Assembly: GCA_963205105.1 (NCBI GenBank)
Contig: CAUJJW010000274.1
Span: 2,377-66,376, forward strand
Length of the DNA stretch: 64,000 bases
Source: Verrucomicrobiota bacterium
GTDB lineage: Bacteria; Verrucomicrobiota; Verrucomicrobiia; Limisphaerales; CAIMTB01
Direction of reading: 5' to 3'
Made by a program: the position numbers and the translations under genes. Below, piece after piece: positions 5,293 through 30,039 of this stretch. The notes under the pieces were generated by a model that had not been told where the DNA came from, searched no databases, and saw only the letters and a program-made list of their open reading frames with translations. Positions within the stretch are counted from its first letter, which is position 1. The number at the start of each line of letters is the position of its first letter.

Positions 5293-5495
5293 AGCGGAAC
5301 GATTCAGATGAGATCCATGGAGTTCACGCAAAGACGCTGAGACGCCAAGAAATGGGACGAACAAGATGAGCCGGGAGCACTCCGACACCCACACCTTTTG
5401 GTTCGCGATTCCTTCTGGGCGCGAGCCGCTTTCTCGGCCGCTCCGCCTTTGAGTCTTCGCGTCTTGGCGTGAGATGCAAAGGAAGCGTTCCGCTA
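5291..5495. mobile_element. MITE-like / ERIC-like non-autonomous element, copy 1 (~205 bp)
   Basis: Imperfect terminal inverted repeats (TAAGCGGAACGATTCAG ... GCGTTCCGCTA) and inner inverted 8-mer arrays (CACGCAAAGACGC ... GCGTCTTGGCGTGAG). A 42-bp core matches 48781-48822 at 40/42 positions. Confidence 0.7.
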
Positions 5496-8600: not shown

Positions 8601-8622
8601 GGGTTCGGTTGGTTGACCCGGT

Positions 8623-9819
8623 TCAGCGCAACGTAGTACCCGCCCCATCGGCGGCCCCCCCGCCGGGCGCGGTTCCACCACTTCCCACCGCAGCGACAGG
8701 CGGACTTTCACGCCCCTTTTCCCGGGCCATGCCGCTCGAATCGTCTCTTCCCACGGTGGTGAACACCGGCTCCACCGCCAACCCGACCCGCATCTGCTGC
8801 AATCCCGAGGTGATCACCACATCGCCGACTTTCAGCCCCGAAAGCACCTGAACCATCGTCTCCGTCCGCGTTCCGGTCTCCACCACCCGCCGCACCACCT
8901 TGCCTTCGGAGGCCACGAACACGTTGCGGTCGGTCACCCCCGGAACCACTGCCACCGACGGCACCAGGATCGCCTCCTCCAGCCGGGAGAGCGTGATCTC
9001 CACGCTCGCGAAAGTCCCCGGCAACAACCGACCCTCCGGGTTCGGACAAATCGCGCGGACCAGAAGGGTTCGGGTGCTGGCATCAATGCGGGGATCGGTC
9101 GCCTGAACCTGACCGGTGAACTTGCGTTCGCCCCCGGCCACCGTGAAGGCCACCGGACTGCCCACTCCCACCTTGCCCGCATAGCGCTCGGGCACCGAGA
9201 AATCGACCTTCAGATGATCCAAACGCTGCAAGGTGGCGATCCGTGTCGAAGCGTTCACGAAGGCGCCCTCACTGACAAAGCGAAGCCCGACGACCCCGTC
9301 AAATGGGGCCCGTATCTCGGTCTTGCCGATCTGGGCCTGCATCAACTCGATCTCGGCCTCCTGGACCGCCACCTCGTTCAGAACGGCATCGTATTCGTCC
9401 TGGTTCGCGATGCCGTCCTTGAAGAGTTGCTCGATCCGCACCTCCCGCCGTTTGGCCAGTTCACGCCGGCTTGTCGCCCGGGCGAGGGTCGCCTTGAGGT
9501 CGGCATCGTTCAGTTTGACCAGGAGATCGCCTTTTTTGACACGGCTCCCTTCGGTAAAGGGAATGGCAACGATCTTGCCATTGATCTCGGCCTGCAATTC
9601 CACGCCTTCCTCAGCCCGCAATGTGCCCGTGGAGACCACCGTCTCTAGGAACGGCTCGGGGGCAACCACCACCGCCGACACCTTCAATGGCGCGACGGGT
9701 TTGGTGGAACCCCCTCCACCCTTGGCCGCAGCCGCCGGTTTGGATCGGCTCTGCGACAGCCACCAGCCGCCGCCAGCCAGGATTCCCAGGATCACCACCC
9801 ACTTGACGATGTACTTCAT
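8623..9819 (-). CDS. RND efflux periplasmic adaptor (membrane fusion protein)
   Basis: N-terminal TM, lipoyl-like G.IV.I.F.EG..VKKGDLLVKL, TEIRAPFDGVVG and DPRIDASTRT. Adjacent to the RND gene. Confidence 0.93.
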   Translation of the reverse strand: MKYIVKWVVILGILAGGGWWLSQSRSKPAAAAKGGGGSTKPVAPLKVSAVVVAPEPFLETVVSTGTLRAEEGVELQAEINGKIVAIPFTEGSRVKKGDLLVKLNDADLKATLARATSRRELAKRREVRIEQLFKDGIANQDEYDAVLNEVAVQEAEIELMQAQIGKTEIRAPFDGVVGLRFVSEGAFVNASTRIATLQRLDHLKVDFSVPERYAGKVGVGSPVAFTVAGGERKFTGQVQATDPRIDASTRTLLVRAICPNPEGRLLPGTFASVEITLSRLEEAILVPSVAVVPGVTDRNVFVASEGKVVRRVVETGTRTETMVQVLSGLKVGDVVITSGLQQMRVGLAVEPVFTTVGRDDSSGMAREKGRESPPVAAVGSGGTAPGGGAADGAGTTLR

Positions 9820-9853: not shown

Positions 9854-11632
9854 TCAATGCGTGTCGAAGATCGCCTGGTAGGCCTTCACCTTCGCCCGGA
9901 TCGCCGACAGTTCGTCGGTCGTGGGCTTGGCTGGGTCCTTGGCCGGAGGCAGCGCGCCCAATTTGAGCAGAGAAGCCATTAAGAGCAAACGGGCCTTGGT
10001 CGCGGTCAGGTTGTTGCCTTCGATGATCAAGTCTTCCTCGTTGCGCCGCATAAAACCCTGGGGATTCCCACGGTTCACTTTCACCACCGGAAACCCGGTC
10101 AGTGCCGCGAGCCGCAACGAATCCTCCACCGGCGCCGTGAGTCCCCCGCCGGTCACGCCTTCCTGAACAAACCCCGCCAGGGGTTCTTCCTTCAGGTTCG
10201 CCTCCACCCGGGCCATCACATCGACTTCGGTTTCCCCTGACGCGAAGGGGTCCGTGTCCCGCCAGCGGGAGGCCTTTACGATGCCGACAAAAGGCATCGC
10301 CTCCGGCCGCAGCGTCCCATCCGGCTCCTTCACCAACACTTCCACCGTTTGAATCCCCGCACCCTCCCGTTTCACCCCGGTCACTTTCGCAGGCAACGCC
10401 GTGACCCGGACATCCGAGAGGTAGGTGTGCTTCCGGTTGGGAATGAAGGTGACCACCGTGTCGTAACCCACGGCACCCAGGATGCCGCCGAAGCCGCCAC
10501 TCGCCACATAGCCACCCGGGCGAGCGTCGCCCTTCTGCACTTCCCGCCCTGAGAACACCACCTGATCGACGATCAACACGCCACCCAGACGGTTCCGGCC
10601 CGCATCGTCCGCCCATTTCTTGGAGAGAATGTACTGCACGCCATGGACGATGTTGCCATCGCCGTCCGCGCTGATGTAACCGCGTGCCCGCTGGGCACTG
10701 TGACACACCAACGGGTACGTGGTGTCGATCAGCAGATGGAGCCAGTAGGTGGTTTCCTCCACGTTCGGACTGCCTTCCAGCCAGACACCTCCAGCGTACT
10801 CACCGCTCGCCATGGCCTTCTGGATCATCATCGTCGCCAAAGCCAAACGCCCCCGTGGCGCATCGGCCCGATGCTCCCCGTAGCGGAAGAAATCCTTCCC
10901 TCTCGTCTCCGGAGGAATGTCGCCGGTCCCATGGTCCGTGCGTTTCGACGCCGACAGCCCCTTGGTGTAGCCACCCGAAGGAGCCGCCCGATAGAAATCG
11001 AAATCCGCCAGGCCCAGAATCTTCCCGCCATTGCGCTCGATCTCTTCCACAATGCGCGAGGCATCGGGATAGAACGTCTGACGGGATTGTTCGAAAGGTG
11101 CCCCCTTGTAAGCGCCCGCTTCGTCCCACGGCTTGCCATCCTTCTGAACCGCCATGTAGGGCAGCGGGTACAGACCATCTTCAGGCTTCAGCTGAATGGC
11201 GTAAACGGGTCGGTCTGTCGCTGCCACCCAGTTGGTCCGGAACGCGCCGCTCGCGTCCAGATAACCGTCCGGTGGACCGTACAGTTCCGCGACATCCGCT
11301 TCCAACGGGTGCGCTGAAAACGCCTCGACGTACACCGTCGCCGGCGCCGCCAGACGTTGCGGATAGAGCCGATCGAACGGCAGCGGCTTGCCGTCCGCTC
11401 CCTTGAGAAGCTCCAAGCCGCGCTCGCGGCGTGCCTTGTTGCTGGTGATCAGCGCATAGGAGTTCTGAATCGTCGCCGTCGGCCCCGAGAAGATGGCGAT
11501 CTTCGGTTTCGGACCGGTTGCCGCCGGCTTCGACTCAGCTGCGCCAGCCACCGATGCGGTGAAGGAGAGGGCGGCCACCGCCGCCGCCCACAACCATTGA
11601 CCAGTTCTCTCCGGCGCCGCTCGCCTGTCCAT
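9854..11632 (-). CDS. Exported, divergent asparaginase-fold protein (~590 aa, large insertion)
   Basis: Signal-like N-terminus (MDRRAA...WLWAAAVAALSFTASVAGA). It has IFSGPTATIQNS where GGTI is expected, WLEGSPNVEET where HGTDT is expected, VQKGDA (conserved Lys) and a C-terminal NNLTATKARLLLMASL. The ORF-track extension to 11866 overlaps the upstream gene and a repeat. Confidence 0.72.
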   Translation of the reverse strand: MDRRAAPERTGQWLWAAAVAALSFTASVAGAAESKPAATGPKPKIAIFSGPTATIQNSYALITSNKARRERGLELLKGADGKPLPFDRLYPQRLAAPATVYVEAFSAHPLEADVAELYGPPDGYLDASGAFRTNWVAATDRPVYAIQLKPEDGLYPLPYMAVQKDGKPWDEAGAYKGAPFEQSRQTFYPDASRIVEEIERNGGKILGLADFDFYRAAPSGGYTKGLSASKRTDHGTGDIPPETRGKDFFRYGEHRADAPRGRLALATMMIQKAMASGEYAGGVWLEGSPNVEETTYWLHLLIDTTYPLVCHSAQRARGYISADGDGNIVHGVQYILSKKWADDAGRNRLGGVLIVDQVVFSGREVQKGDARPGGYVASGGFGGILGAVGYDTVVTFIPNRKHTYLSDVRVTALPAKVTGVKREGAGIQTVEVLVKEPDGTLRPEAMPFVGIVKASRWRDTDPFASGETEVDVMARVEANLKEEPLAGFVQEGVTGGGLTAPVEDSLRLAALTGFPVVKVNRGNPQGFMRRNEEDLIIEGNNLTATKARLLLMASLLKLGALPPAKDPAKPTTDELSAIRAKVKAYQAIFDTH

Positions 11633-11643
11633 GAACCGGTCGT

Positions 11644-11699
11644 CCGTAGCGGCGGGCGTCTCGCCTGCCGTAGAGGGGGGCGTCTCGCCCCCCGGAATC
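11644..11699. repeat. 56-bp REP-like palindromic element, copy 1
   Basis: The reverse complement matches 52725-52780 with 3 mismatches. Internal hairpin GGGGGGCGTCTCGCCCCCC plus a second GGCGGGCGTCTCGCCTGCC unit. Confidence 0.8.
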
Positions 11700-11787
11700 A
11701 ACGATGCATGAGCGGAGGGCATAGCTCCGAAACCCAAGTGTCTGCCCATGATCCCAGGGTGCACCGTTCGCATCGGGGTTCGCATGT

Positions 11788-13425
11788 TCAGATCGGTACG
11801 GGTTGATAGCCGCCCAACGCCTTTTCGAGATGCGCCATCGCCGCAAAGACCACGTGCTCGGTCCACGGCCGTCCCACCACCTGGACCCCGATGGGAAGCT
11901 TGTTCTTGCAGGAGCCTCCCCGGACGACGCCCGCCGGGTATCCCGTGATGTTGTAGATGGACGTGAAGCTCGCTCCGGGCAGTTCGGTCACCTTGTCCGG
12001 ATCACCGATCATCGGGAGCGGGGTGGAACGAACGGGCGAGATCAGGAGGTCATACTTCTCCATGAAGGTGAGAATCTCTGTTTTGATCGCGTCCTGCGTC
12101 TCCAGCATCGCGATGTACTCGGCCACCGGCACCTGCGGTTGGTCGAATTTGCGCGCCGGTCCCGGAACAATGGTCTTGTACCGCTCCGTCAGGCGCTTCT
12201 GCCATGCGTTGCCGTCGCCGGTCGTCAACTTTCGGCGCAGTTCGTTGGCCTCCATGATCCGGGGCGGAACATCTTCCGCCATGGAACAGCCAGCCGCTTC
12301 CAGTGCCTTGGCCGCGGCCTGGATCACCGCCACCACTTCGCTCGCGGAACCAGCCGCCCCGGGTCCCTGCTGCGTGTAGAACGCCACCCGAAGCCCCCCG
12401 ATCTTCACCACTTTCATGTCCTCCAACGGCACGGCCTGAATTGCCGCGTCGATGTAGTCAGGACCGCTGATGATCGGCAGAATCGTCGCCAAATCCTCCA
12501 CCCGCCGCGCCATCGGCCCCAGCTGCTGGTAGCTGTCGAATGTACCACCGTAGTCGATGATGTGACCCGTGCGAGGAACCCGGCCCGAAGTGGGCTTGAT
12601 CCCGGCAATCCCGCAGGCATGCGACGGACCCCGGATGCTGCCACCAAAGTCCGATCCGATGTCGAACGAAGCACCACCCGCAGCGACAATCGCTCCCGCC
12701 CCACCGCTGGACCCATAGACCGTGTAGCGCGGGTCGTAGGGGTTTCGGGTCATCCCGTAGAGGATATTGGCCGTGGTTCCCAGACCGGAAACACCGCCGG
12801 TGGTGAACTCCGGGGTGTTGGTCTTGCCCAACAAAATGGCACCGGCGGCACGCAGGCGGGCGACAACGGTCGCGTCTCGTGGAGGAACGTAATGCGAGCG
12901 ACCCTGCGTGCCACCGGTGGAAATCACACCTTCCGTCTCAATGGAGTCCTTAATGGTCATCGGCACCCCGTGCAGCGGGCCCTTGACCTGACCTTTCGAA
13001 AGCGCTTCATCCGCCGACTTCGCCTCGGCGAGCGCCCGTTCGAAGCACGGCATCACCACCGCGTTCAGCATCGGATCGACCTTCTGGATCCGATCGATGT
13101 GCAGCTTCACGACTTCCGTCGACGATATCTTCTTTTCCCGAATCATCTGGGCCAGACGCGTCGCCGACATGAACAACGGGTTGTCCGAGGTGTCGGCCGA
13201 CGCGCGATAGGTCCCCGCGGCCAGAGCGCCGCCGATGACGCCGCTCACCGAAGCCACGGCGGAGGGGCGGGTGCGGGTGCGGCGGCGGAAGAGGTCGCGA
13301 CGTGAGATCCCCGGCCGGGATTCGGCGGTGCGCGGCGTGGAACCAACGGCAGGACTTACGGTTTCAGGAGAGGTGTGCATGGGTTGAGGAGGAGGAAAGG
13401 GTTTCGGTGATCGGGACCAGGGCAT
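11788..13425 (-). CDS. Amidase-signature (AS) family amidase, Tat-type clade
   Basis: PMTIKDS (Lys), GSSGGAGA (cis-Ser) and GSDFGGSIRGP (nucleophile Ser). Twin-Arg motif SRRDLF. ATG overlaps the upstream TGA (TGATG). Confidence 0.93.
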   Translation of the reverse strand: MPWSRSPKPFPPPQPMHTSPETVSPAVGSTPRTAESRPGISRRDLFRRRTRTRPSAVASVSGVIGGALAAGTYRASADTSDNPLFMSATRLAQMIREKKISSTEVVKLHIDRIQKVDPMLNAVVMPCFERALAEAKSADEALSKGQVKGPLHGVPMTIKDSIETEGVISTGGTQGRSHYVPPRDATVVARLRAAGAILLGKTNTPEFTTGGVSGLGTTANILYGMTRNPYDPRYTVYGSSGGAGAIVAAGGASFDIGSDFGGSIRGPSHACGIAGIKPTSGRVPRTGHIIDYGGTFDSYQQLGPMARRVEDLATILPIISGPDYIDAAIQAVPLEDMKVVKIGGLRVAFYTQQGPGAAGSASEVVAVIQAAAKALEAAGCSMAEDVPPRIMEANELRRKLTTGDGNAWQKRLTERYKTIVPGPARKFDQPQVPVAEYIAMLETQDAIKTEILTFMEKYDLLISPVRSTPLPMIGDPDKVTELPGASFTSIYNITGYPAGVVRGGSCKNKLPIGVQVVGRPWTEHVVFAAMAHLEKALGGYQPVPI

Positions 13426-16288: not shown

Positions 16289-17869
16289 TCAGTACTCAAA
16301 GTCCTCCCCGGGCAGTGCCGGCGTCGTGGCTGGCACCCGGCGTTGCGGGTACACCGCCTCAAAGCCCGCCGCGACCCGGAGCAGTTTTGGCTCGGTCCAG
16401 GGACGCCCGAGGATCTCGAGCCCGATCGGTAGTCCTGCCGGCGTAAAGCCCGCCGGGACAATGAACGCCGGCAAGCCGGTCACCGGGCTCGTCTGGTTCG
16501 GCTGATACTTGCTCGTCGGAGCATCCCGATGGCCGATCAGCAGAGGACCATGGAGCTTGTGCGGGTAGATGAGGGCATCCAGCCGGTAGCGGTCCATGAG
16601 TTCGATCAACATCTCCTTGAGCGCAGCCTTCGCCTCCAAAGCGGCGCGATACTCAGGGTCACGGTTCAGATCACGCGGTTTCGCCGCCGCCTGGATGATT
16701 TCCGGCCGCACCGGGTGGATGGTGTTGGCGATCATTTCCTGCACGTTCTTGAACTTGGCCGTCGGACCCTGCCTCGCCAGATACCGGTTGATCGCATCCA
16801 CCCGCTCGTAGCGACTGGGCGAGGCATTGGTGAGATATCGAGGGAGATCAATGCCCAGGCTGACACCACGCACGACCTGCGCGCCGGCCTTCTCGATGGC
16901 GGCGTACGCCTTGTCGAAAAGTTCCACAGCGCCATCCTCCACGGGCTTGAAGTCGTAGGCTTCCTTCAACACACCCAGACGCGCCCCTCGCAGACCGTTG
17001 GTCACCACAAAACTCGTGTACGGCTCCAGCGGCATCTTTCCCAGACTCTGGGCGGTCCAAAGATCCGCCGAATCGAATCCCGCAATCACATCCAACATGG
17101 CGGCGACGTCGTACACCGATCTCGCCATCGGGCCACCGCGCTCACCGGTGATGTAGCTCCACATCTGACCGTCGCGGCTGATCAGACCGGAGGTGGTGGA
17201 AATGCCGCACAGATTCCCATCCGAGGTCGGCGTCCGTATCGAGAATCCGGTTTCGCTGCCCAGGCCGACCGGGGCGAAATAAGCGGCCAATCCGGCCGAA
17301 GTCCCGCTGCTGGACCAGCCTGGAGTGCGATCCAAGGCATGCGGGTTGAGCGAGGATCCCCCCAGGCTGCTGCTGGCGATGATGTCCGTCGCCCCGTACC
17401 AGTCGCTCTGGTTCACCTTCGCCAAAATGATCGCACCGGCTTCCCGCAGCTTCGCGATGATGAAGGCATCCTTGGTCGGTTGCGCATCCGCCATCGCCTT
17501 GAACCCGCCGCTGGTCGGCATGTCGGCCGTGTCGAACACATCTTTGGCGATCACCGGAACCCCATGCAGCGGACTCCGGGGCCCCTTGGCTCGACGCTCC
17601 GCATCCAAGGCTCTGGCCGTCTCCAGGGCCTTGGGATTCAGAGCCAGAACCGCCTTGATCGTTGGTCCCTTCTGATCGTAGGCCTCGATCCGGTTCAGGT
17701 AGAGCTGCACGAGCTTCTCCGACGTCAGCGCTCCTGCCTCGAAGGCAGCCTGAATGTCTCGAAGCGAAGCGTTGCGAAGTTGAAATTGGGCCGCCCCAGC
17801 GCTCAGCACCGCCAGCGTCAGGGCCGCACTCGCGAGCGAAAAACTCTTCCACCAGGTTCGGTAAGTCAT
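16289..17869 (-). CDS. AS family amidase, Sec-type (peptide-amidase-like) clade
   Basis: PVIAKDVFD, GWSSSGTSA and GSETGFSIRTP. Signal ...AALTLAVLSAGA, then LRNASLRDIQAAF. Start taken at MTYRTWW. Confidence 0.92.
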   Translation of the reverse strand: MTYRTWWKSFSLASAALTLAVLSAGAAQFQLRNASLRDIQAAFEAGALTSEKLVQLYLNRIEAYDQKGPTIKAVLALNPKALETARALDAERRAKGPRSPLHGVPVIAKDVFDTADMPTSGGFKAMADAQPTKDAFIIAKLREAGAIILAKVNQSDWYGATDIIASSSLGGSSLNPHALDRTPGWSSSGTSAGLAAYFAPVGLGSETGFSIRTPTSDGNLCGISTTSGLISRDGQMWSYITGERGGPMARSVYDVAAMLDVIAGFDSADLWTAQSLGKMPLEPYTSFVVTNGLRGARLGVLKEAYDFKPVEDGAVELFDKAYAAIEKAGAQVVRGVSLGIDLPRYLTNASPSRYERVDAINRYLARQGPTAKFKNVQEMIANTIHPVRPEIIQAAAKPRDLNRDPEYRAALEAKAALKEMLIELMDRYRLDALIYPHKLHGPLLIGHRDAPTSKYQPNQTSPVTGLPAFIVPAGFTPAGLPIGLEILGRPWTEPKLLRVAAGFEAVYPQRRVPATTPALPGEDFEY

Positions 17870-17873
17870 GGAA

Positions 17874-19016
17874 TCAGTACTGTTCAAAAACCCGCCGCAC
17901 ACCGTTCAGATCCGCACCCTTCGCCAAGGCCATCTGCAGCAACATCCGCGCTTTCTCAGGTTGGAAGTTGTCGCCGGGGACGATGGACGATTCGCGCCGA
18001 CGCGGGGTGTCCTGCACCCGACCGCTCCGAGTCCGGGTGGTCGCCACAACAATGACTCCCTTTTCCTGAGCTCGCTTTACCGCCTCGGATTGCCCACCGG
18101 CCAGGGCGCCGGCCCCTGTCCCGTCAATCACCACGCCCTTCGCCCCATTCGAAACCATCGCATCCAGCAAATAGCCGGGGGCATCGGTGTAGCCGTAAAG
18201 AATCTCCACCGCGGGGAGTGCTTCCGGCAGACCCGCCAAATGGAACTCCGAGGCATGGGTGTGCCGCCTGAGTGGTGCGGTGTGGAACACCACACGATCC
18301 GGATCCACCACCCCGAGAATCCCAAGGTCCGGACTGCGAAACGCCTCCACGCGGTAGGCGCTCATCTTCATCACGTCCCGGGCGGCGTTGATGTTCTGGT
18401 TCATCACGTGAAGAACCCCCATTCCCTCCGCGGACGGCGTCGCCGCCACCCGAACCGCATTGAAGAGATTCAAGGGACCATCGCCGCTCAACCCGGACCA
18501 GGGCCGCTGGGAACCCACAAAAACAATGGGCTTCCGGGTGTTCACCGCCAGGTTCATGAACCAGGCAGTCTCCGCCATGGTGTTGGTCCCGTGGGTCACC
18601 ACCACGCCGTCCACGGTCGGATCATTGACCAGTTCCTGAACACGGGCCGTCACCTTGCGAATATGTGCCGTGGTCATCCCGCCCGCCGACCGTCCCGCCA
18701 CGTCTTCGGGCGCTCGCTGGTCGTCCGGTGTCACGCGGGCCACCAGGGCAAGTTCCGGCAAGGCATCCACCCAATCCTGGGGCGCCACCCGATTGCCGGG
18801 GCCGCCGTAGTTGTTCAGGTTCATCCGGCTCGTCGCCTTGCTGGCGATCGTGCCCCCCATGGACACCAACATCACCCGCGGGAGATTCAGACCCGGAGGC
18901 AAAACCTTTGGGATCTCCTGACCTCGTACACTGCGGCCAATACCCGCCAACACTGCCCCTCCGAGCAGCGCCTGACGCAACGCCGACCGTCGATTCATGG
19001 TTCGTTCAAGGCTCAT
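17874..19016 (-). CDS. Type II asparaginase/glutaminase-fold protein with Tat signal
   Basis: SMGGTIAS, VVTHGTNTMAET, VFVGSQRP, RDVMK and PEKARMLL. NRRSALRQALLGG twin-Arg signal. Alternative start at 18998. Confidence 0.88.
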   Translation of the reverse strand: MSLERTMNRRSALRQALLGGAVLAGIGRSVRGQEIPKVLPPGLNLPRVMLVSMGGTIASKATSRMNLNNYGGPGNRVAPQDWVDALPELALVARVTPDDQRAPEDVAGRSAGGMTTAHIRKVTARVQELVNDPTVDGVVVTHGTNTMAETAWFMNLAVNTRKPIVFVGSQRPWSGLSGDGPLNLFNAVRVAATPSAEGMGVLHVMNQNINAARDVMKMSAYRVEAFRSPDLGILGVVDPDRVVFHTAPLRRHTHASEFHLAGLPEALPAVEILYGYTDAPGYLLDAMVSNGAKGVVIDGTGAGALAGGQSEAVKRAQEKGVIVVATTRTRSGRVQDTPRRRESSIVPGDNFQPEKARMLLQMALAKGADLNGVRRVFEQY

Positions 19017-19025
19017 GGTCGTGTT

Positions 19026-20093
19026 TCAGTACTCGTTGAAGATCCGTTGCAGTTCCCGCGGCTCCTTGGTCTTGGTCAGGGCCACCCTCAGAAGAATCCG
19101 CGCCTTTTGGGCGTTCAGGCTGTCAGCCGTCACCACACCGCGTCCGGCCTGGCGTTCGCTGAGCAACACCCGGCCCGATCCCTTTCGATCGCTCTGAACC
19201 ACAGCCACTCCCTTGGAAACCGCACCCAAAAGGGCCTGGGTCACCGCTGGCGACCCGTCCGCCAGCACGATCCCAGCCGCACCCGCCGTCACCAGTGCCT
19301 TCAGAGGTTCGGCCGATGCCTCCTGGTACCCGTAGACCACGTCCACGGGCGGCAGGTTGGTCAGGGTGCTGACATCAAACTCGGACTTCGCGGTGTGCCG
19401 GGTCAGCGGGGTTCGGTAAAACACCACCTTGTCGGCATCCGCATATCCCAGGGGGCCGATTTCCCTCGAAACGAAGGTCTCCACGCGGGTGGTGTTTCCC
19501 TTGGTCACCCAGCGCGCCGAATGAATGGTGTCGTCGAGCAGGACGAAGACCCCCTTCCCCACCGCCTCGGGCGTCACCGCCGTGCGCACGGCATTGTAGA
19601 GATTCAACGGGCCGTCACGGCTGATCGCCGACCAAGGACGCATGGCGCCGACCACGACCACCGGCTTTTCCGAACGTACGACCAAGTGCAGGAAATAGGC
19701 TGTTTCCTCCAGGGTGCCCGTTCCATGAGTGACCACCGCGCCGGCGACATCCGGACGGGACAAGGCTTCGTTGATGCCCTTGGCCAGTTTCAGCTGGAGT
19801 TCGGTGGTCATGTTGCCACTGCCGAGGTTGCTGACCTCGCGCACCTCCACCCGGGCGATCTCGCTCAATTCCGGGAGATCGGCCAACAACTCCAGGGGAG
19901 TCACCCGGCCGTCGCTGTATTCCGAGAGCTTCTGACGGTGCGCTCCCTTGCTCTGAATCGTCCCGCCCGTGGTGAAGACCACCACTCCAGGCAGCGACTC
20001 CGCCGCTTGCGCCGGAGAACCCGGGCCGGTTAGTCCCATCAGAACGGTCGCGCAGACCGTGCCCAACCATCGCTGGATCATCGTGCGTCGCAT
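19026..20093 (-). CDS. Type II asparaginase/glutaminase-fold protein, exported
   Basis: TTGGTIQS, VVTHGTGTLEET, VVVGAMRP, RWVTKGNTT and LNAQKARILL. Signal peptide ending ...PAQA. Confidence 0.9.
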   Translation of the reverse strand: MRRTMIQRWLGTVCATVLMGLTGPGSPAQAAESLPGVVVFTTGGTIQSKGAHRQKLSEYSDGRVTPLELLADLPELSEIARVEVREVSNLGSGNMTTELQLKLAKGINEALSRPDVAGAVVTHGTGTLEETAYFLHLVVRSEKPVVVVGAMRPWSAISRDGPLNLYNAVRTAVTPEAVGKGVFVLLDDTIHSARWVTKGNTTRVETFVSREIGPLGYADADKVVFYRTPLTRHTAKSEFDVSTLTNLPPVDVVYGYQEASAEPLKALVTAGAAGIVLADGSPAVTQALLGAVSKGVAVVQSDRKGSGRVLLSERQAGRGVVTADSLNAQKARILLRVALTKTKEPRELQRIFNEY

Positions 20094-20099
20094 GGTGTG

Positions 20100-21692
20100 T
20101 CAGTAGTCCAAGGTTTCTCCGGGAAGCGCCGGCGTGGTGGCCGGGGTCTTTCGATGTTTCGTTTGCTGTTCGTAGGCGTAGGCGAGACCGATGACCGTCG
20201 GCTCGGCGTAAAGACGCCCCGTGAATTCGAGACCCAGGGGAAGCCCATCCGGTGTGTAGCCACAGGGAACAATAACCGTCGGGTAACCTGTCACCGTGCT
20301 CAACCGCGCGGAACTGCCGCGGGAACGCTGCTCCGCCACCGGCGTGTTGCCGTTGTTGGGCGCCGCCTCAGCAATGGTGGGAATGGGTTGGGTGCGATGC
20401 GGGTAGACCAGGGCGTCCAACCCGTAGCGATCCATCATCCCGGTCACCACCTCACGGGCCACGGCACGTCCCCGCACCTTGGCAGCGTATTCGGGATTCT
20501 CCTCCATCCGGGGCTCCGCATCGCACGCGATGTAGCGGGTCTTCAATCGTCCCAGGTACTTCCCGGTCGCAATCAGTTCGGTGAGGCTCTTGACCGGTAC
20601 CGTCCCGCGACGTGTCGCCAGATAGGCGTTCAAGCCCCACTTGTACTCGTCGTCGCTCATGTTGACGTCCCGCAGGAGGGCCCAGAGATCGGTGTCCGGA
20701 GCCACCGGGTCCACCAGGACGGCTCCCGCCTTCTTGAGATCCGCCAACGCCTTCTTGAAGAGGTTCAGTGCCGCCTGATGCTCCGGCCCTTCCCCGTTCA
20801 ACTGCCACAACACACCCAGTCGGGCCCCTTTCAATCGTTGCGCGTCCAGAAACGGGAGGTAACCGCCCGCCGGTTTCTTGCCGGCCGACTTCAAGGTGAC
20901 CAGGTCCGCCGCATCGACACCCGACATCGCCGACAGCAACGCCGCGGCATCCGTCACGTTGCGGGCCATCGGCCCCACCCGATCCAGGGTCAGCGAAATC
21001 GGAATCACCCCATCCCGGCTCACCAAACCCTCCGACGGCGAGATGCCCACCAGTCCGTTGTTGTTGCTTGGACTGCGCACCGAGGAGCCCGTCTCCGTAC
21101 CCAAACCGCCCTGGGCGAGCACGCCGCTCACCGCTGCTCCAGTGCCGGCGCTGGACCCACCGGGAATGTGGTCGAGTTGATAGGGGTTCTTCGTCTGTCC
21201 GCCCAGGGAACTGGTGCCGGAACCGCCCCGTGCAAATTCGTCCAGATTCACCGCAGCGAGAATGATCGCTCCGGCATCCCGAAGGCGCGCGACGGTGAAG
21301 GCATCATCGGGAGGCAGGCAGTCCTTGAGGGCCAGTGAACCGCCGGTGGTCGGGAGATCCACCACATCAATGTTGGCTTTGATCACCACCGGCACCCCGT
21401 GAAGCACCGAGCGGGGTCCCTTCTGCTTGCGTTCCGCATCGAGCGCTTTTGCCACCTCCAGCGCGCGGGCGTTGAGCGAGAGAACAGAGTTGAGGGCCGG
21501 TCCCTTCTGATCATAGGCGTCAATCCGCGCGAGGTAGAGCCGGGTCAGTTGCTCGGCCGAAAGTTTCCCCGAATCCATCGCCGCCTGGATGTCCAGCACG
21601 GTGGAACTCCCCAGATCAAAGGACGCCGCTCCAGACGAGACGGACAACGAAACAGCAAGCCAACCTGCCATCCACCGGATCGTTCTGTTCAT
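20100..21692 (-). CDS. AS family amidase, Sec-type clade
   Basis: PVVIKAN, GGSSAGTGA and GTETGSSVRSP. Signal MNRTIRWMAGWLAVSLSVSSGA. Start uncertain (21692/21698). Confidence 0.92.
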   Translation of the reverse strand: MNRTIRWMAGWLAVSLSVSSGAASFDLGSSTVLDIQAAMDSGKLSAEQLTRLYLARIDAYDQKGPALNSVLSLNARALEVAKALDAERKQKGPRSVLHGVPVVIKANIDVVDLPTTGGSLALKDCLPPDDAFTVARLRDAGAIILAAVNLDEFARGGSGTSSLGGQTKNPYQLDHIPGGSSAGTGAAVSGVLAQGGLGTETGSSVRSPSNNNGLVGISPSEGLVSRDGVIPISLTLDRVGPMARNVTDAAALLSAMSGVDAADLVTLKSAGKKPAGGYLPFLDAQRLKGARLGVLWQLNGEGPEHQAALNLFKKALADLKKAGAVLVDPVAPDTDLWALLRDVNMSDDEYKWGLNAYLATRRGTVPVKSLTELIATGKYLGRLKTRYIACDAEPRMEENPEYAAKVRGRAVAREVVTGMMDRYGLDALVYPHRTQPIPTIAEAAPNNGNTPVAEQRSRGSSARLSTVTGYPTVIVPCGYTPDGLPLGLEFTGRLYAEPTVIGLAYAYEQQTKHRKTPATTPALPGETLDY

Positions 21693-21759
21693 GCGCATAC
21701 AGGGAAATTCCGCCACCGTATTCACCGATCTCCGACCGAGCCACAGGGACCCGCGCCGA

Positions 21760-23376
21760 TCACATCCCGAGCGCTTCACCCGCCAGAGCGGGAGTGCTCT
21801 TGGGGGACTTGCGGTGTCCCGTCTTGGCTTCGAAACCCGAGGCCACCTTGATCAAGGTCGGTTCACTGAACGGCCGTCCAAGGAACTGGACCGCGAAGGG
21901 CATTCCGTCGGCGGCAAAGAAACCACCAGGAACGATGATCGTGGGAAGACCGGTGTAGGAACTGAGGTTGTTGCGGATGTCCGGAGGCCGGTCCGCGCCC
22001 ACCGGAATGTCCTCCGTGAGAAAAGTACGGAAGGGAAGAATGATTCCGTCCAACTGGTACTTGTCCATCAGCCCGACCAGGGCGGCCACCAGCACTTGCT
22101 TTTGGCGAATGGCAGCGAACAAGGGCTTGTGATGATCCAGCGACTCGATTTTGGCCGCCTCGATGATGGTCGGCTTCACGATATCGCGGGCCTTGGCGAT
22201 CATTTCTTCCACGGTCCGGATGGGCGCGTTGGGTCCCAGGCCCGCGAGGTAGTGGTTGATCGCGAACGCCCTCTCGTAAGTCGCCGATCCGGCGTCGGCC
22301 TGAGCTTCAATCAGATTCAGACCGGTGAGCACCGGATCGACCAGAATGGCGCCTGCAGCCTTCATGTCCTTCATGGCTTGTTCCATCAGCGCCAGTCCCT
22401 GCTCGTGCTTGGGGCCCTTTCGGAACATTTCCCGAAGCACACCCAGCCGGGCCCCAGAGAGGCCGTTGGTGGAAACGAAGGAGGTGTAGGGGTGGTCGGG
22501 CATCTTCCCGAGCCCCTCCAGGGTCACCAAGTCCGCGGCGTCAAACCCGGCAATCACATCCAGCACCGCCGCACAATCGTACACCGAGCGACCCATGGGC
22601 CCACCGTTCTCCTGAAATGGCGAACTCCACATCATGCCGGAGCGACTCACCAACCCGTGGCTGGCGGAAATTCCCACGATGTTGTTCAACGTGCTGGGAA
22701 TGACAATCGACCCACCCGTGTCCGACCCCAGGCCCACGGTTCCCAGCCAGGCAGCCATCGCGGCTCCAGTACCGGAGCTGGAGCCACCGGGAAATTTCTT
22801 CGCGTTGTACGGACTTAGTACCTGCCCGCCCAGGGTGCTGCCACCCGTCGGCGCCGTCCCGTACCAGTCGGATTGATTCAGTTTCGCCAGTATGATCGCG
22901 CCCGCCTTCCGGAGCCGGTCGATGACGAACGAATCCTTCAGCGGTTGGGAGGTTGCCATCGGCTTGAAACCACCCGTCGTCGGCATGTCCGACGTGTCGA
23001 ACACGTCCTTCGCCATGACCGGGATCCCGTGCAGCACCGAACGCGGCCCCTTCTCCTTGCGCTCCTGATCCAGAGCGCGCGCGGTCTCCAGCGCCTTGGC
23101 GTTCAGGGTGATCACCGTGTTCAGCGCTGGCCCCTTCTTGTCGTAGGCCTCAATCCGCGCCAGATACAACTGCACCAAACGTTCCGCGGTGAGCGTTCCC
23201 TGGGTCATCGCCGCCTGAAGATCGGCAATGGTGGCTGTTTCCAACGCCAGCGGCGCCGCCCCCGAGGAACGCGCCACCAGCATCCCGGGCAACGCCATCA
23301 GGATGGCGAGCCCGATCCCACCCGCCGAACCGGACAAAGGCCGGGTGGGACGCGGCCGGGGCCATAAATGTCGCAC
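21760..23376 (-). CDS. AS family amidase, Sec-type clade (start uncertain; frame open to 23592)
   Basis: PVMAKDVFD, GGSSSGTGA and GSDTGGSIVIP. Hydrophobic signal GIGLAILMALPGMLVA. The in-frame GTG at 23376 was chosen; the upstream stretch is low-complexity Arg/Gly. Confidence 0.9.
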   Translation of the reverse strand: MRHLWPRPRPTRPLSGSAGGIGLAILMALPGMLVARSSGAAPLALETATIADLQAAMTQGTLTAERLVQLYLARIEAYDKKGPALNTVITLNAKALETARALDQERKEKGPRSVLHGIPVMAKDVFDTSDMPTTGGFKPMATSQPLKDSFVIDRLRKAGAIILAKLNQSDWYGTAPTGGSTLGGQVLSPYNAKKFPGGSSSGTGAAMAAWLGTVGLGSDTGGSIVIPSTLNNIVGISASHGLVSRSGMMWSSPFQENGGPMGRSVYDCAAVLDVIAGFDAADLVTLEGLGKMPDHPYTSFVSTNGLSGARLGVLREMFRKGPKHEQGLALMEQAMKDMKAAGAILVDPVLTGLNLIEAQADAGSATYERAFAINHYLAGLGPNAPIRTVEEMIAKARDIVKPTIIEAAKIESLDHHKPLFAAIRQKQVLVAALVGLMDKYQLDGIILPFRTFLTEDIPVGADRPPDIRNNLSSYTGLPTIIVPGGFFAADGMPFAVQFLGRPFSEPTLIKVASGFEAKTGHRKSPKSTPALAGEALGM

Positions 23377-23588
23377 CCAGGCCAGGAGTTTCCCTCCCGC
23401 TTTTCCCGGATGAAACGGGGTTGACCCGCCAACCGCACCGACGCCCAACCATCCGCCAACGCCACCACGGGACCGACCGGGACGATGAACGCCGTGCTTT
23501 CGGGATCCCGCCCGTTGGTTCCGGCGGGTCGGCCGGACTGCCGGAGCGGTATGGGTCCTCGGGGATCTTCGGGGGGCGGGGCGCATGG

Positions 23589-25181
23589 TCACTTGGAGCT
23601 GAGGGTTCGCTCGAAAGTTTCCCCCGGGAGGGCCGGCGTGCTTTCCGGTGGTTTCCGTCGGCGGGTGGCCTGTTCGACGCCGTAGGCCACCTGCAATAGC
23701 TTCAGGTCGTCGAAGGATTTCCCGACCAACTGGATACCCACCGGAAGGTTCTGGCTGGTGTAGCCTCCCGGAAGAATGATGCCCGGCAACCCTGTCGTGG
23801 ACGTCAGGTTGTTCAGGGAACTGGCCGGTCCCGGGCTCGACGGTTCACCGTTCTTCGGCGGCGTCGAACGATAGAGCAGGACCAGGGCGTCAAGATCGTG
23901 ACGAACGATGAGGGAATCGATCAGGTCGCGGATGGATTTGCGGCTGCGGTAACGCGCTTCAAATTCCGGGTTCTTGTCAGCCGGCGGATACGTGAGGCCC
24001 TTGATGTAGCGTTCACTGAACTTCTCAGGGCCAACCTTCGCGATCATCTCCTCCATGGTCTTGTAGGGACGGTTCGGTCCGAGGCGTGAGAGGTACACGT
24101 TGCCGGCAGAAATCACTTCAAACTCCGCAACGCCGCTGAAGGCGCTGGAAGACTGACGTCGCAGATCAATGCCGGTGAGGATCGGGTCCATCACCTGGGC
24201 GCCCGCTTTCACCATGTCCGAAAGGAACGATTCAAACACCGCCTTGGCGGGAGCGTCTTCAGGAGCGGTGCTCACCATCTCGCGCAGAACACCGATCCGG
24301 CGCCCCCTGAGGGATCCGGAACCCAGTTGTTCCGCCCATTCCATCTTCGGGAACCGGCCGATGCCTTGGTAAGTGTCGAGGTCCTCGGGATCCCAACCGG
24401 CCATGCAGCCCAGCAGAACCGTCATGTCATACACATTTCGCGCCATCGGACCTGCCCGGTCCTGGGTGGGACCGCGCGGCACAATGCCGGTGCGGGTGAG
24501 CAAACCCTGGGTGGCCACCATGCCAGCCAGACTGCAAAAGGCGGAAGGGTTCTGCACCGAACCACCGGTGTCCGTGCCCACACCCACCGTCGCGAACCAG
24601 CAGGCAATGGCCGCACCCACCCCGTTGCTGGAACCGCCTGGTTGGTAGTCTTCGTTGTAGGGGTTCTCGGTGGCCCCAATCGGATGGGTCTCACCGAAGC
24701 CGTCCGCGCCGAACCAGTTCACCGTCGCCACCTTGGCGATGATGACCGCTCCCGCTTCCCGGAGGCGTGCCACCACACCCGCGTCGCGTTCGGGCATAGG
24801 ACTACCGAACGGCTTGAACCCAGCCGTGGTGGGAAGGCCTTCCATGTCGATCAGATCCTTGATCACGACGGGAATGCCGTGCATCGGGGATCGGCGACCT
24901 TTGGCGCGGCGTTCCGCATCCAACAGACGGGCCTCCTCCAACGCCTTGGGATTGGCGGTGATGACCGAGTTGATCTTGGGTCCTTGTTTGTCGTAGGCGT
25001 CGATGCGCGCGAGGTACATCTTCACCAGTTTTTCCGACGACAAAGTTCCCCCATCCATCGCCGCTTGAAGATCGGCGATGGTGGCGTTGGAGAGGTCCAC
25101 GGCCGCGGCATGGGCTTTGGAAGCCGCACACGTGAGCACAAGGAGGGCGATTAACCGCAGAAGCAAGGGGCAGGCGTTCAT
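23589..25181 (-). CDS. AS family amidase, Sec-type clade
   Basis: PVVIKDLID, GGSSNGVGA and GTDTGGSVQNP. Signal ...LLRLIALLVLTCAASKAHA. Confidence 0.93.
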   Translation of the reverse strand: MNACPLLLRLIALLVLTCAASKAHAAAVDLSNATIADLQAAMDGGTLSSEKLVKMYLARIDAYDKQGPKINSVITANPKALEEARLLDAERRAKGRRSPMHGIPVVIKDLIDMEGLPTTAGFKPFGSPMPERDAGVVARLREAGAVIIAKVATVNWFGADGFGETHPIGATENPYNEDYQPGGSSNGVGAAIACWFATVGVGTDTGGSVQNPSAFCSLAGMVATQGLLTRTGIVPRGPTQDRAGPMARNVYDMTVLLGCMAGWDPEDLDTYQGIGRFPKMEWAEQLGSGSLRGRRIGVLREMVSTAPEDAPAKAVFESFLSDMVKAGAQVMDPILTGIDLRRQSSSAFSGVAEFEVISAGNVYLSRLGPNRPYKTMEEMIAKVGPEKFSERYIKGLTYPPADKNPEFEARYRSRKSIRDLIDSLIVRHDLDALVLLYRSTPPKNGEPSSPGPASSLNNLTSTTGLPGIILPGGYTSQNLPVGIQLVGKSFDDLKLLQVAYGVEQATRRRKPPESTPALPGETFERTLSSK

Positions 25182-25186
25182 GAGGG

Positions 25187-26860
25187 TTAGCGGGTCGAGG
25201 TGAGCAGATCCAAGGTGAGGGTCTCTCCAGGCAGAGGAGGCGTGAGGGGCGGTGACTTGCGGTGCTGGGTCACGGCTTCATAGCCGCTCGCCACTTTGAT
25301 CAAGGTGGGCTCCGAGAAGGGTCTCCCGATAACTTGCATCGCGAACGGCATGCCGTCCGAGGGGAAGAATCCGCCGGGAACAATGATCGTCGGCAGTCCG
25401 GTGAAGGAGTGGAGCGTGTTGCGGGTCTCATTGCTGATGCCGCTGCTGCCGTTCACCCGAACATCGGTCGTGTAATCTTGGGGAATGGCTGTTCGGTACG
25501 GCAGCACCAGACAGTCCAGGCGATGTTTGTCCATCAGACCCACCAGGGCTGCCTTCAGCATTTCCTGGTGTTCCTTGATGGCCGCAAACCCGGCATGCCG
25601 GTCCAGCGTCTTGATCTTCGCGGTCTCGATGATCACCGGCTTCACCAGACTCCCACCCTTCGCGATCATTTCCTCAACGCTCCGGATCGGCGCATCCGCC
25701 GGCAGTCCCGCAAGGTAGGCATCAATAGCCAGGGCGCGTGAGTACTTGGCCTCGCCGCCGTCGTTCTGGGTTTCGACCAGATTCAGTCCCGTGAGCACCG
25801 GATCCACGATGACGGCGCCCGCTTCCTTCATGTCGGCCAGCGCCTTTTCAGCCAGGGCTAGGCCTTCGGTATGGATGGGGCCGCTTCGGAACATCTCGCG
25901 CAGCACACCGACCCGCGCTCCGGCCAGCCCCTTTGGGTCCACAAAACTGGTGTACGGACGGTCCGGTAGTTTCCCGATGGACGATTCCGTGATCAGGTCG
26001 CCCGGGTCATAGCCCGCGATGGCATCCAGAACGGCGGCGCAGTCATAGACGCTGCGACCCATGGGCCCGCCCTTCTCCTGGCCTGGCGAACTCCACATCA
26101 TGCCGCGACGGCTGATCAGCCCCTCGGTCATGGCGAAACCGACCAGATTTCCGTGAGCGCTGGGATTGACGATCGAACCGCTGGTGTCGCTGCCGAGTCC
26201 AACCGTGCCGAACCACGCAGCCATGGCGGCGCCAGTACCGGAACTCGATCCACCGCCGTATTTCTTCGGGTTGTACGGGCTCACCACCGGCCCCATCCAG
26301 GTGCTCCCACCTGGAGCCGCCACCCCGTACCAATCCGACTGGTTCAATTTGGCGAGAATGATCGCGCCCGCCTGGCGCAGACGCTCGATCACGAACGCGT
26401 CCCGGGAGGGCTGCGACGTCGCCATCGGTTTGAACCCACCGCTGGTCGGCATGTCTTTCGTGTCGAAGACGTCCTTGGCCATGACCACGATCCCGTGCAA
26501 CGGCGACCGAGGACCCTTCACCCGTCGTTCCGCATCGAGCGCACGCGCCTCTTCCAGGGCCTTCGAGTTCAGCGTCAAAACGGTGTTCAGCTTGGGACCC
26601 TTCTGGTCGTAGGCCTCGATTCGCGCCAGGTAGAGCTGCACCAGCTTCTCAGCCGTCAGCCCACCCGACTCCATCGCCTTCTGCAGTTCCGCCACCGTGG
26701 CGGTCCCCAGGTCGATGGAAACCACGCCATAGGCCGGCAGCGCCATGCCGATCGCCGCAGCAAGGGCCAAAGCCCACCCGTGCGAGCGTCGGGGCGATGG
26801 GGCACGTGACGCCAACCGGTGTTCCGAGGGGATACTCTTGGGGTGAATCGTCGATTTCAT
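25187..26860 (-). CDS. AS family amidase, Sec-type clade
   Basis: VVMAKDVFD, GGSSSGTGA and GSDTSGSIVNP. Signal ...WALALAAAIGMALPAYG. ATG at 26860 overlaps the upstream TGA (ATGA). Confidence 0.92.
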   Translation of the reverse strand: MKSTIHPKSIPSEHRLASRAPSPRRSHGWALALAAAIGMALPAYGVVSIDLGTATVAELQKAMESGGLTAEKLVQLYLARIEAYDQKGPKLNTVLTLNSKALEEARALDAERRVKGPRSPLHGIVVMAKDVFDTKDMPTSGGFKPMATSQPSRDAFVIERLRQAGAIILAKLNQSDWYGVAAPGGSTWMGPVVSPYNPKKYGGGSSSGTGAAMAAWFGTVGLGSDTSGSIVNPSAHGNLVGFAMTEGLISRRGMMWSSPGQEKGGPMGRSVYDCAAVLDAIAGYDPGDLITESSIGKLPDRPYTSFVDPKGLAGARVGVLREMFRSGPIHTEGLALAEKALADMKEAGAVIVDPVLTGLNLVETQNDGGEAKYSRALAIDAYLAGLPADAPIRSVEEMIAKGGSLVKPVIIETAKIKTLDRHAGFAAIKEHQEMLKAALVGLMDKHRLDCLVLPYRTAIPQDYTTDVRVNGSSGISNETRNTLHSFTGLPTIIVPGGFFPSDGMPFAMQVIGRPFSEPTLIKVASGYEAVTQHRKSPPLTPPLPGETLTLDLLTSTR

Positions 26861-28413
26861 GTCGTGAAGTCCTTGGGTTTCTGCCATCCGCCAAACCGCG
26901 TCTCCATCTCCTGCGCCACGGCGATCGACACATCTTCCCGCCACGGGCGGGCCACCACTTGCAGGCCGATGGGAAGTCCTTCCGGGGAGGTGCCAGCCCG
27001 CACCACCAAGGCCGGCCATCCCGTGACGTTGAAGAGGCTTCGGTAACTGGTCGTCTCAGGCGCCTTCTGACCAATCACCCGCGCGGGGGCGGCATCGGTC
27101 GGACACAGCAGCACGTCGTATTTGGAGAACCAGGTCAGCATCCGCGAACGGATTTCATCCTGTTGCTCCAGCGCCTCCTCAAACTCCGGCACCGACAGCG
27201 AAGGACCGTCGAAGACGCGTCCGGGAGAAGGCGGGTGGGTTCCCACACGCGCATTGACCCGGCCGATGAACGCGCCACCGTCCGCACTCCGCACCCGCGG
27301 TAGCAGACCATAGGCTTCCATGTATCCGGAGGGCGCCGATTCCTCGACCACGCAACCCAGGGATTCCATGGCCTTCGCCGCGGCCCGCACCATCGCCACG
27401 GTCTCTGCGGTCGGACCGTGGTAACCGTTCACGTCGGTGAAGAACGCGACGCGAAGCTTCTTGAGATCCACCTTCCACGGATCCAGCACCGGCATCGGCT
27501 TGATCGCGGCGTCCTGAAAGTCCGGCCCCGCCAGGATGGGAAGGAGCAGCGCGATGTCCTCCACCCGGCGCGCCATCGGCCCGATCTGCTGGTAGGCATC
27601 GTAGACGCCGCCGTAATCCACCACGTGACCGGTCCGGGGAACGCGACCTGAGGTGCCCTTCAAGCCGACAATCCCGTTGCAATGAGCCGGATTGCGGATG
27701 CTGCCGCCGAAATCACTGCCAATGTCGAAGGCCGCCCCGCCCGCAGCCACGATGGATCCCGCCCCACCGCTGCTGCCACCGCAGGACCGCGAGGGATCGT
27801 AGGGATTGCGGGTCACTCCGAAGAGGATGTTGACCGTGGTTCCCAGATCCCGAAGTCCAGGACTGCCCAGGGTGAACTCGGGCGTGTTGGTCTTGCCCAG
27901 GAGGATGGCGCCAGCAGCCCGGGCCCTCGCCACCGCGGTGGCGTCGGTGTCCGGAACGCGGGTCAACCACCCGAGAGTGCCACCCGTGGTCCGCACCCCG
28001 GCGGTGTCCAAGGAATCCTTGATGGTCATCGGAACCCCGTGCAGCGGCCCGAGAACTTCCCCTTTTGCCAGGCGTTCATCGGCGAGTTTGGCCTCCAACA
28101 GGGCACGGTCGCCGCACACGGTCACCACGGCATTCAAGATGGGGTTCACCTTGTCGATCTGCTTGAGGAAGGCTTGGACGGCTTCCACCGCCGAAACCTT
28201 CTTGGTCCGGATTTCCTGCGCCAACCGTGACGCCGACATGGAGGTGATCTCTGTCGAGGTGTCGCGCACCAGAGGGGCTACGACCGACGATGCGCGTGCG
28301 TGGACGGCCGTCGCGGACGCCAGAACCGCGGCGACCCGGGACATCGGCTTGAACAAGCTGCGGCGATTCATCGATCCGCGCCGCGTGGTGGAAGAGGTAG
28401 GAGGCATGCTCAT
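26857..28413 (-). CDS. AS family amidase, Tat-type clade
   Basis: PMTIKDS, GGSSGGAGS and GSDFGGSIRNP. NRRSLFK twin-Arg motif. Confidence 0.92.
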   Translation of the reverse strand: MSMPPTSSTTRRGSMNRRSLFKPMSRVAAVLASATAVHARASSVVAPLVRDTSTEITSMSASRLAQEIRTKKVSAVEAVQAFLKQIDKVNPILNAVVTVCGDRALLEAKLADERLAKGEVLGPLHGVPMTIKDSLDTAGVRTTGGTLGWLTRVPDTDATAVARARAAGAILLGKTNTPEFTLGSPGLRDLGTTVNILFGVTRNPYDPSRSCGGSSGGAGSIVAAGGAAFDIGSDFGGSIRNPAHCNGIVGLKGTSGRVPRTGHVVDYGGVYDAYQQIGPMARRVEDIALLLPILAGPDFQDAAIKPMPVLDPWKVDLKKLRVAFFTDVNGYHGPTAETVAMVRAAAKAMESLGCVVEESAPSGYMEAYGLLPRVRSADGGAFIGRVNARVGTHPPSPGRVFDGPSLSVPEFEEALEQQDEIRSRMLTWFSKYDVLLCPTDAAPARVIGQKAPETTSYRSLFNVTGWPALVVRAGTSPEGLPIGLQVVARPWREDVSIAVAQEMETRFGGWQKPKDFTT

Positions 28414-28435
28414 AGGGGGGTCAAGTGGCTGAGTT

Positions 28436-30031: not shown

Positions 30032-30039
30032 GGGGTTTG

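Follow-up and report, generated by a model that had tools for sequence, protein, structure and literature searches.

What does an asparaginase-fold enzyme act on when the aspartate of its HGTDT motif has been replaced? The question is raised by two adjacent genes, here called A and B, in a 64,000-nucleotide stretch of DNA (the window) from a Verrucomicrobiota bacterium (contig CAUJJW010000274.1, positions 2,377 to 66,376 of the forward strand). Both encode exported proteins of the type II asparaginase fold, in which the aspartate, Asp90 in E. coli AnsB, is replaced by Asn in A and by Gly in B. The evidence consists of sequence features, conservation, synteny and gene fusions. The reading to which we lean, with a little more than even confidence, is that A and B are active periplasmic amidohydrolases of a non-Asp90 branch of the family, that their substrates are not free L-Asn or L-Gln, that they probably form a heteromer, and that they belong to a nitrogen-scavenging battery of amidases.

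Two exported asparaginase-fold proteins without Asp90

Gene A (17874-19016, minus strand) encodes a protein of 380 aa and gene B (19026-20093, minus strand) one of 355 aa; both assignments rest on the open reading frame (ORF) and on family profiles, and that of A also on a structure model. On the minus strand B comes first and A follows in the same reading frame, after an intergenic gap of 9 nt. PF00710 and PF17763 were matched across the full length of both proteins (E 1e-49 / 1e-57), and each thus has the two-domain asparaginase fold. Against the TIGR00520 type II subfamily profile (cut-off 314.3 bits), B scored above the cut-off at 362.9 bits and A slightly below it at 297.3 bits. Neither reached the cut-off of the AnsB equivalog NF008304 (506 bits; A 228.4, B 311.6), and the scores against the GatD profiles TIGR02153 and NF003217 (cut-offs 324 and 310 bits) were 131-138 bits for A and 96-103 bits for B. 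Over their whole length both proteins aligned with type II asparaginases of known structure. The top PDB match for both was 9BAD, B. subtilis AnsZ (E 4e-66 for A and 2e-86 for B), and E. coli AnsB (3ECA) matched B with an E value of ~2.5e-78. The AlphaFold model of A (predicted local distance difference test score, pLDDT, of 81) gave target-normalised template modelling (TM) scores of 0.91-0.93 to the Erwinia and E. coli type II asparaginases (1HFJ, 5I48). Homologues of both A and B are publicly annotated as L-asparaginase.

The catalytic residues were located by alignment and by reading the DNA. The nucleophilic Thr, equivalent to T12, is present in the GGTI motif of A (18846-18857, minus) and of B (19956-19967, minus), and the equivalent of K162 is present in VMKMS of A (18360-18374, minus) and VTKGN of B (19494-19508, minus). 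The motif that corresponds to HGTDT is HGTNT in A (VVTHGTNTMAETA; 18579-18593, minus), with T89 kept and D90 changed to Asn (codon AAC), and HGTGT in B (VVTHGTGTLEETA; 19713-19727, minus), with T89 kept and D90 changed to Gly (codon GGC). Asp90 of the T89-K162-D90 triad of type II L-asparaginases is thus missing from both proteins. The preliminary description of this DNA had reported the two altered motifs together with the retained Thr pair and Lys, and alignment and DNA bear it out.

Conservation was analysed in 120 database homologues per gene, with 59-95% identity, giving 121 sequences each with the window copy. Named sources were Verrucomicrobiae metagenome-assembled genomes (MAGs), Opitutaceae, Nibricoccus aquaticus, Opitutaceae EW11, Horticoccus and Congregicoccus ASA1. 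No variation was seen at the positions of T12, Y25 (the lid Tyr), T89 and K162 in either set (121/121 for A and 121/121 for B). Position 90 was Asn in all 121 A sequences, and among the B sequences it was Gly (95), Ser (13), Ala (12) or Thr (1), and in no case Asp. The loss of Asp90 in A and B exceeds chance or sequencing error by far. According to Lubkowski et al. (PMC6667453), Asp90 is invariant across L-asparaginases and critical for the binding of canonical substrates, which also backs the earlier statement that this residue helps to bind the substrate. Because T12, Y25, T89 and K162 are strictly kept, A and B are most likely active, and would release ammonia from a carboxamide.

The alpha-amino subsite and its place in the family

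Alignments of both clades with AnsB and with a profile built from 21 canonical relatives were made with MAFFT and, profile to profile, with hhalign. Such an alignment to AnsB had been proposed as a check in the preliminary description, and it showed a change wider than that of Asp90 alone: every ligand of the substrate alpha-amino group differs from AnsB in both clades. Q59 is replaced by Gly in A (Ser in some homologues) and by Gly in B (Pro in some), and D90 by Asn in A and by Gly, Ser or Ala in B. At N248', the A clade has GTGAG(S/A) in place of GVGNGN, and in the B clade the loop (GNGN) is deleted, with the loss of five residues. The E283' loop (AEVDD) is two residues shorter in both, reading PRRRE in A and SER-QAGR in B; hhalign places the two-residue gap at or adjacent to E283, where A has RRR and B has R. 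No alignment puts an acidic residue at the E283 position, and the conserved Glu of A comes after the RRR stretch. Glu283 of the partner protomer is described as disfavouring or repelling anionic ligands (Lubkowski et al., PMC6667453). The alpha-carboxylate ligand S58 is kept in B (121/121) and lost in A, where the position is occupied by A, G or a gap in the homologues and lies within a loop insertion with invariant D99 and R101. The alpha-amino ligands Q59 and E283', and N248', which type II L-asparaginases possess, are thus missing from both A and B.

The replacement residues at 59, 90, 248 and 283, and at 58 in A, are themselves conserved within the clades. Other differences, shared by the clades or specific to one, were seen in the lid (14-15) and at positions 115 (M to Q in A) and 118 (S to W/F). 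The alterations are concentrated in substrate recognition; the fold core and the catalytic set are unaffected. As the subsite formed by Q59, D90, N248' and E283' has been rebuilt, we infer that the physiological substrates are something other than free L-Asn and L-Gln. Substrates other than free Asn or Gln had been proposed before on the strength of the HGTDT change, and the proposal gains weight from the additional changes at Q59, at N248' and in the E283' loop.

To place these proteins in the wider family, 1.84 billion cluster representatives were scanned with B as the query, and 7,298 relatives were found. A tree (FastTree) and an alignment were built from the 141 representatives of at least 300 aa among the 150 nearest. 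Asp was absent from position 90 in 48 of these 141, which carry N, S, A, G, Y, F, W or V instead. A (support 0.91) and B (support 1.0) stand next to each other as clades. These two and five representatives make up a clade in which 47/48 members are non-Asp (support 0.92), enclosed by an 85-leaf clade in which 82/85 are non-Asp (support 0.82) and which stands apart from the canonical TYSQTDKNE enzymes. The nesting of the non-Asp clades indicates that Asp90 was lost once, long ago, with radiation of the branch afterwards. Nameable members of the non-Asp clade are metagenomic, for example from Chloroflexota, and are annotated merely as 'L-asparaginase'. The non-Asp90 branch represents an extensive, uncharacterised diversification of the asparaginase fold.

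The non-Asp90 members among the representatives P0241-P0390 are highly variable at positions 59, 248 and 283. Many of them are without a signal peptide and come from other phyla, for instance Chloroflexota. The neighbourhoods of the nearest non-Asp outgroups, P0248 (Tyr90) and P0397 (Asn90), contain no amidase arrays, and the amidase-operon context described below is therefore specific to the A and B clades. We found no published account of position-90 variants, heteromeric asparaginases or Opitutales/Verrucomicrobia amidase clusters, and no Congregicoccus description, that bears on this system.

Inheritance of the pair and its amidase operon

B was directly followed by A in the window, in three congeners, in a Verrucomicrobiae MAG, in genome G310, in Nibricoccus and in Congregicoccus ASA1. 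Nibricoccus has two pairs, and ASA1 has three consecutive pairs (B-A-B-A-B-A; L005 7784-14461). All of the B-A loci examined sit among amidase genes, and several end with a large asparaginase-like gene and a resistance-nodulation-division (RND) pump. The two genes, separated by 9 nt in the window, overlap in some relatives. B-B distances correlate with A-A distances (r = 0.74; ten pairs, 45 comparisons), and ASA1 pair 1 and Nibricoccus pair 2 are nearest neighbours for both B and A. This correlation, and the matching of subtypes across genera, indicate that the pairs were duplicated and inherited as units. Position 90 across the three ASA1 pairs is T, G and S in B and N, S and N in A, which suggests several specificities in one organism; the divergence of 26-42% between paralogous pairs likewise suggests several specificities. 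The system is patchy, being present in 4/14 genomes of the window's genus. Of 401 genomes sampled from the phylum, at least 4 carry the A type, a lower bound because the census with the A profile scored four candidates per genome; its count of A without B is not reliable.

Both proteins carry an N-terminal signal peptide, as read by eye, consistent with export. The leader of A (MNRRSALRQALLGGAVLAGIG; aa 1-32; 18921-19016, minus) contains a plausible twin-arginine motif, NRRSAL (NRRSALR with LLGGAVLAGIG), to be compared with the twin-arginine consensus S/T-R-R-x-F-L-K ahead of a weakly hydrophobic h-region. That of B (aa 1-30; 20004-20093, minus) has a hydrophobic h-region followed by predicted cleavage between AQA and AE, and this leader also begins with MRR. 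The preliminary description had distinguished a clear twin-arginine translocation (Tat) signal on A from a weaker, general secretion (Sec)-like one on B. A twin-arginine motif occurs in only ~39/121 A homologues, the remainder carrying ordinary Sec-type leaders. The suggestion that this difference between the leaders hints at a hetero-oligomer was rejected, given this lack of conservation of the motif across the A clade; differing export routes would, if anything, argue against co-assembly of A and B before export.

Just after its signal peptide, mature A begins with an extension (QEIPKVLPPGLNLP; 18879-18920, minus) with the consensus QEIPxxxPPGxxLP, conserved in ~110/121 A homologues. It was present on every A seen after a B, save in Nibricoccus pair 2, which has a partial AEIP without PPG. 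Solitary A-type copies (A') are without the extension, their mature start being AKPKVV...; such copies were found without an adjacent B (G253:C4:39705-40718) and as an extra copy ahead of a B-A pair (Nibricoccus, P0068; L004 10001-11077).

The setting of the pair among amidase genes, together with a fusion of B to an amidase, is the most important context of the system, and was missed by the preliminary description. In congener G008 (contig C113, L030 4281-6851), an 856-aa amidase-B fusion is the orthologue of the amidase encoded immediately upstream of B in the window (20100-21779, minus). There is neither a stop nor an internal signal peptide between the amidase and the B domain, and the sequence across the junction is ...TPALPGENL-AETPGTGPTVA-LFTTGGTIQSR... 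Another fusion protein (P0422; 838 aa, three member sequences) has the motif HGTAT, a B part 63% identical to that of the G008 fusion, and a different linker. The existence of two diverged fusions argues that the amidase and B may act together on one substrate or pathway.

The whole operon (5493-35844, minus) was delimited from domain hits and leaders. Its order is a TonB-dependent receptor (33163-35844, minus), eight amidases, B, A, an amidase, an FmdA/AmdA-like gene, two amidases, a large asparaginase-like gene, and an RND membrane-fusion protein with an AcrB-type pump (5493-9819, minus). The amidase-signature (PF01425) genes number 11 (11788-33179, minus), in addition to the one acetamidase-like FmdA/AmdA gene, and every enzyme of the operon carries a Tat- or Sec-type leader. 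The Sec-leader amidases that flank the pair, namely the upstream peptide amidase (Pam)-like enzyme and a downstream one recognised from domain profiles (16289-17902, minus), which overlaps the end of A, are closest to the S. maltophilia peptide amidase (1M21, E 3e-89). The Tat-leader amidases are closest to GatA, biuret hydrolase, the nylon-oligomer hydrolase NylA and urethanases. The third asparaginase-like protein, a 670-aa ORF (9854-11866, minus), is highly divergent (PF00710 E 5e-7, PF17763 E 6e-6), has neither GGTI nor HGTDT, and keeps its place directly ahead of the RND pump at related loci (L006 16118-17818, G005, G008, G217, G253). The receptor showed weak similarity to siderophore receptors in NCBIfam, far below the cut-off, which gives no substrate clue.

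The longest ORFs of several amidases (21760-23592, 25187-27019, 26857-28554 and 28436-30307, minus) overlap the preceding gene and start far upstream; the true starts are probably internal Met or Val codons just before the leaders, and the listed 565-623 aa would then be too long.

The divergent genes encode DUF3450, two ExbB proteins, TonB and a tetratricopeptide repeat protein, followed by a LysR-type regulator. Sigma-54-like -24/-12 elements (TGGCA-N8-TGC) were found on both strands of the divergent promoter region, at 35963 (minus), 36119 (plus) and 36354 (plus), the last being a perfect match to TGGCAC-N5-TTGC. All three PF00710 matches of the 8.2-Mb genome fall in the operon, and a plant-type asparaginase (PF01112) is encoded elsewhere. 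The genome has 25 amidase-signature matches, 11 of them in the operon and nine in two other tandem arrays of six and three genes, on contigs C299 (28693-39335) and C212 (61336-65934) of the same genome (G000).

Possible functions and comparison with known enzymes

The substrate of A and B would be a carboxamide that at the 'alpha' position is acylated, carries no charge, or is anionic and bulkier, such as an N-acyl or peptidyl Asn or Gln, or a succinamate-like deamino acid. Such N-substituted or deamino substrates would fit because B keeps the carboxylate ligand S58, Gly59 and Gly90 make the pocket larger, Arg takes the place of the acidic loop, and the partner enzyme is Pam-like. B and A probably form a heteromer, in which each active site would consist of the N-domain of one protein and the C-domain loops of the other. 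Two unlike sites would result, one from the B N-domain and the A C-loops and one from the A N-domain and the truncated B C-loops. This arrangement is plausible because of the strict B-A adjacency, the duplication of the pair as a unit, the extension on A after B, and the complementary half-site losses. B probably also docks physically on periplasmic amidases, given its fusion to the upstream Pam-like enzyme in two lineages. The TonB-dependent receptor would feed the periplasmic amidase battery, the RND pump would act downstream of it, and the operon as a whole would strip, and probably harvest, amide nitrogen in the periplasm.

A bolder version, which we regard as unlikely to hold in full, is that A and B are obligate partners in a heteromer whose two active sites are not equivalent and which is docked to the Pam-like enzyme within a periplasmic 'amide utilisation locus' that includes import, deamidation and RND export. 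The receptor would then import amide-rich organic nitrogen (peptide amides, N-acyl or peptidyl Asn/Gln), about a dozen other exported amidases together with A and B would free ammonia, and the RND pump would expel the deamidated skeleton. If true, such a locus would parallel the polysaccharide utilisation loci, but for mining nitrogen, and would give the asparaginase fold a new substrate class.

Asp90 is deemed invariant and indispensable in the asparaginase literature, and here a large, conserved and apparently functional branch lacks it. The rebuilt alpha-amino subsite points to an unexplored substrate class for a fold that is used medically and industrially, and the pairing and the fusion of B to a Pam-like enzyme suggest the first heteromeric or multi-enzyme class 1 asparaginase. 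Amide nitrogen is a major form of organic nitrogen, and the operon, with its TonB receptor, 11 amidases, acetamidase-like gene, three asparaginase-like genes and efflux pump, would represent a testable route of amide-nitrogen harvest in soil and freshwater Verrucomicrobia. Experiments are feasible in the cultured carriers Nibricoccus aquaticus, Congregicoccus parvus ASA1 and Opitutaceae EW11.

Several observations weigh against the reading of A and B as a heteromer with non-canonical substrates. Asn90 of A could still hydrogen-bond the amino group and K162, so that residual L-Asn activity is possible. The equivalent of E283 is uncertain by 1-2 residues, as MAFFT and hhalign disagree. In the AlphaFold monomer model of B (pLDDT 76), residues 189-227 are poor. 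Extension-less A-type genes occur alone (G253, Nibricoccus), so that not every A-type protein needs a B partner. Among long proteins with a B-like domain, only amidase-B and unrelated fusions were found, and no B-A fusion. The nitrogen-scavenging role rests on gene content and the sigma-54-like motifs.

Some of these points favour a reading that is quite possible, if doubtful: that A and B, though both active, assemble independently into homo-oligomers and differ in substrate, and are neighbours only because an ancient tandem duplication has stayed within one operon. The type II asparaginases form homotetramers, and extension-less A-type genes without B, the different look of the two leaders in the window and the missing B-A fusion would all be expected on this account. 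It sits less well with the finding that each locus examined has B directly followed by an extension-bearing A (with one partial variant), that the pair was duplicated as a unit and is matched across genera, that the genes lie 9 nt apart or overlap, and that the half-site losses are complementary, B being without the 248 loop and A without S58.

It is distinctly unlikely that A and B are ordinary periplasmic L-asparaginases or glutaminase-asparaginases in which other residues (Asn90 in A, a water molecule or a neighbour in B) stand in for Asp. Their full-length similarity to AnsB-type enzymes, the score of B above the TIGR00520 cut-off, the invariant T12, Y25, T89 and K162, the S58 retained in B and the public annotations as L-asparaginase all speak for it. 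However, D90 is reported to be invariant and required for canonical-substrate binding (PMC6667453), Q59, N248' and E283' are altered consistently over 240 homologues, and the AnsB equivalog cut-off is missed (228 and 312 vs 506 bits). Up to three diverged pairs per genome are hard to square with a single substrate, and the genome has a separate plant-type asparaginase. That one or both are dead pseudoenzymes, serving as binding or scaffold subunits for the neighbouring amidases, is very improbable: a triad residue is lost, A is additionally without S58, and the B-amidase fusion in two lineages is of the kind expected of a scaffold or substrate-binding module, but the Thr nucleophile, lid Tyr, second Thr and Lys are invariant in 121/121 sequences per clade at up to 40% divergence, which would be unexpected if catalysis had been lost.

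The closest characterised systems are the type II asparaginases E. coli AnsB (EcAII; 3ECA) and those of Erwinia/Dickeya (1HFJ, 5F52). A and B resemble them in the two-domain fold (TM 0.91-0.93 for A), the periplasmic location, and the shared GGTI Thr, lid Tyr25, Thr89 and Lys162, at ~36-45% identity. They differ in the absence of D90, the Gly at Q59, the changed or deleted N248' and the shorter, Arg-rich E283' loop, and A differs further in lacking S58 and in having the loop insertion and the N-terminal extension. Moreover, A and B are a diverged paralogue pair, whereas the AnsB type is one gene for a homotetramer. B. subtilis AnsZ (9BAD), the top match by sequence among solved structures, has the canonical HGTDT and the usual substrate ligands, unlike A and B. 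The Pseudomonas 7A glutaminase-asparaginase (3PGA/4PGA), of the same family, has a relaxed specificity and shows that the pocket can be retuned; its substrates are nevertheless free amino acids, with the alpha-amino group still bound via the conserved Asp and Glu.

S. maltophilia Pam (1M21/1M22), also periplasmic, is a relative of the partner enzymes and not a homologue of A and B. It hydrolyses the C-terminal carboxamides of peptides, and, among solved structures, it is nearest to the Sec-type amidases found beside the pair and, in relatives, fused to B. Pam is a stand-alone enzyme, and we found no description of its association with an asparaginase fold or a TonB-receptor operon, unlike the amidases of the window. 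GatD and GatA are cytoplasmic and tRNA-dependent and keep HGTDT, and A and B score far below the GatD cut-offs; GatD and GatA nevertheless represent the same two families, asparaginase fold and amidase signature, in use as ammonia-releasing modules.

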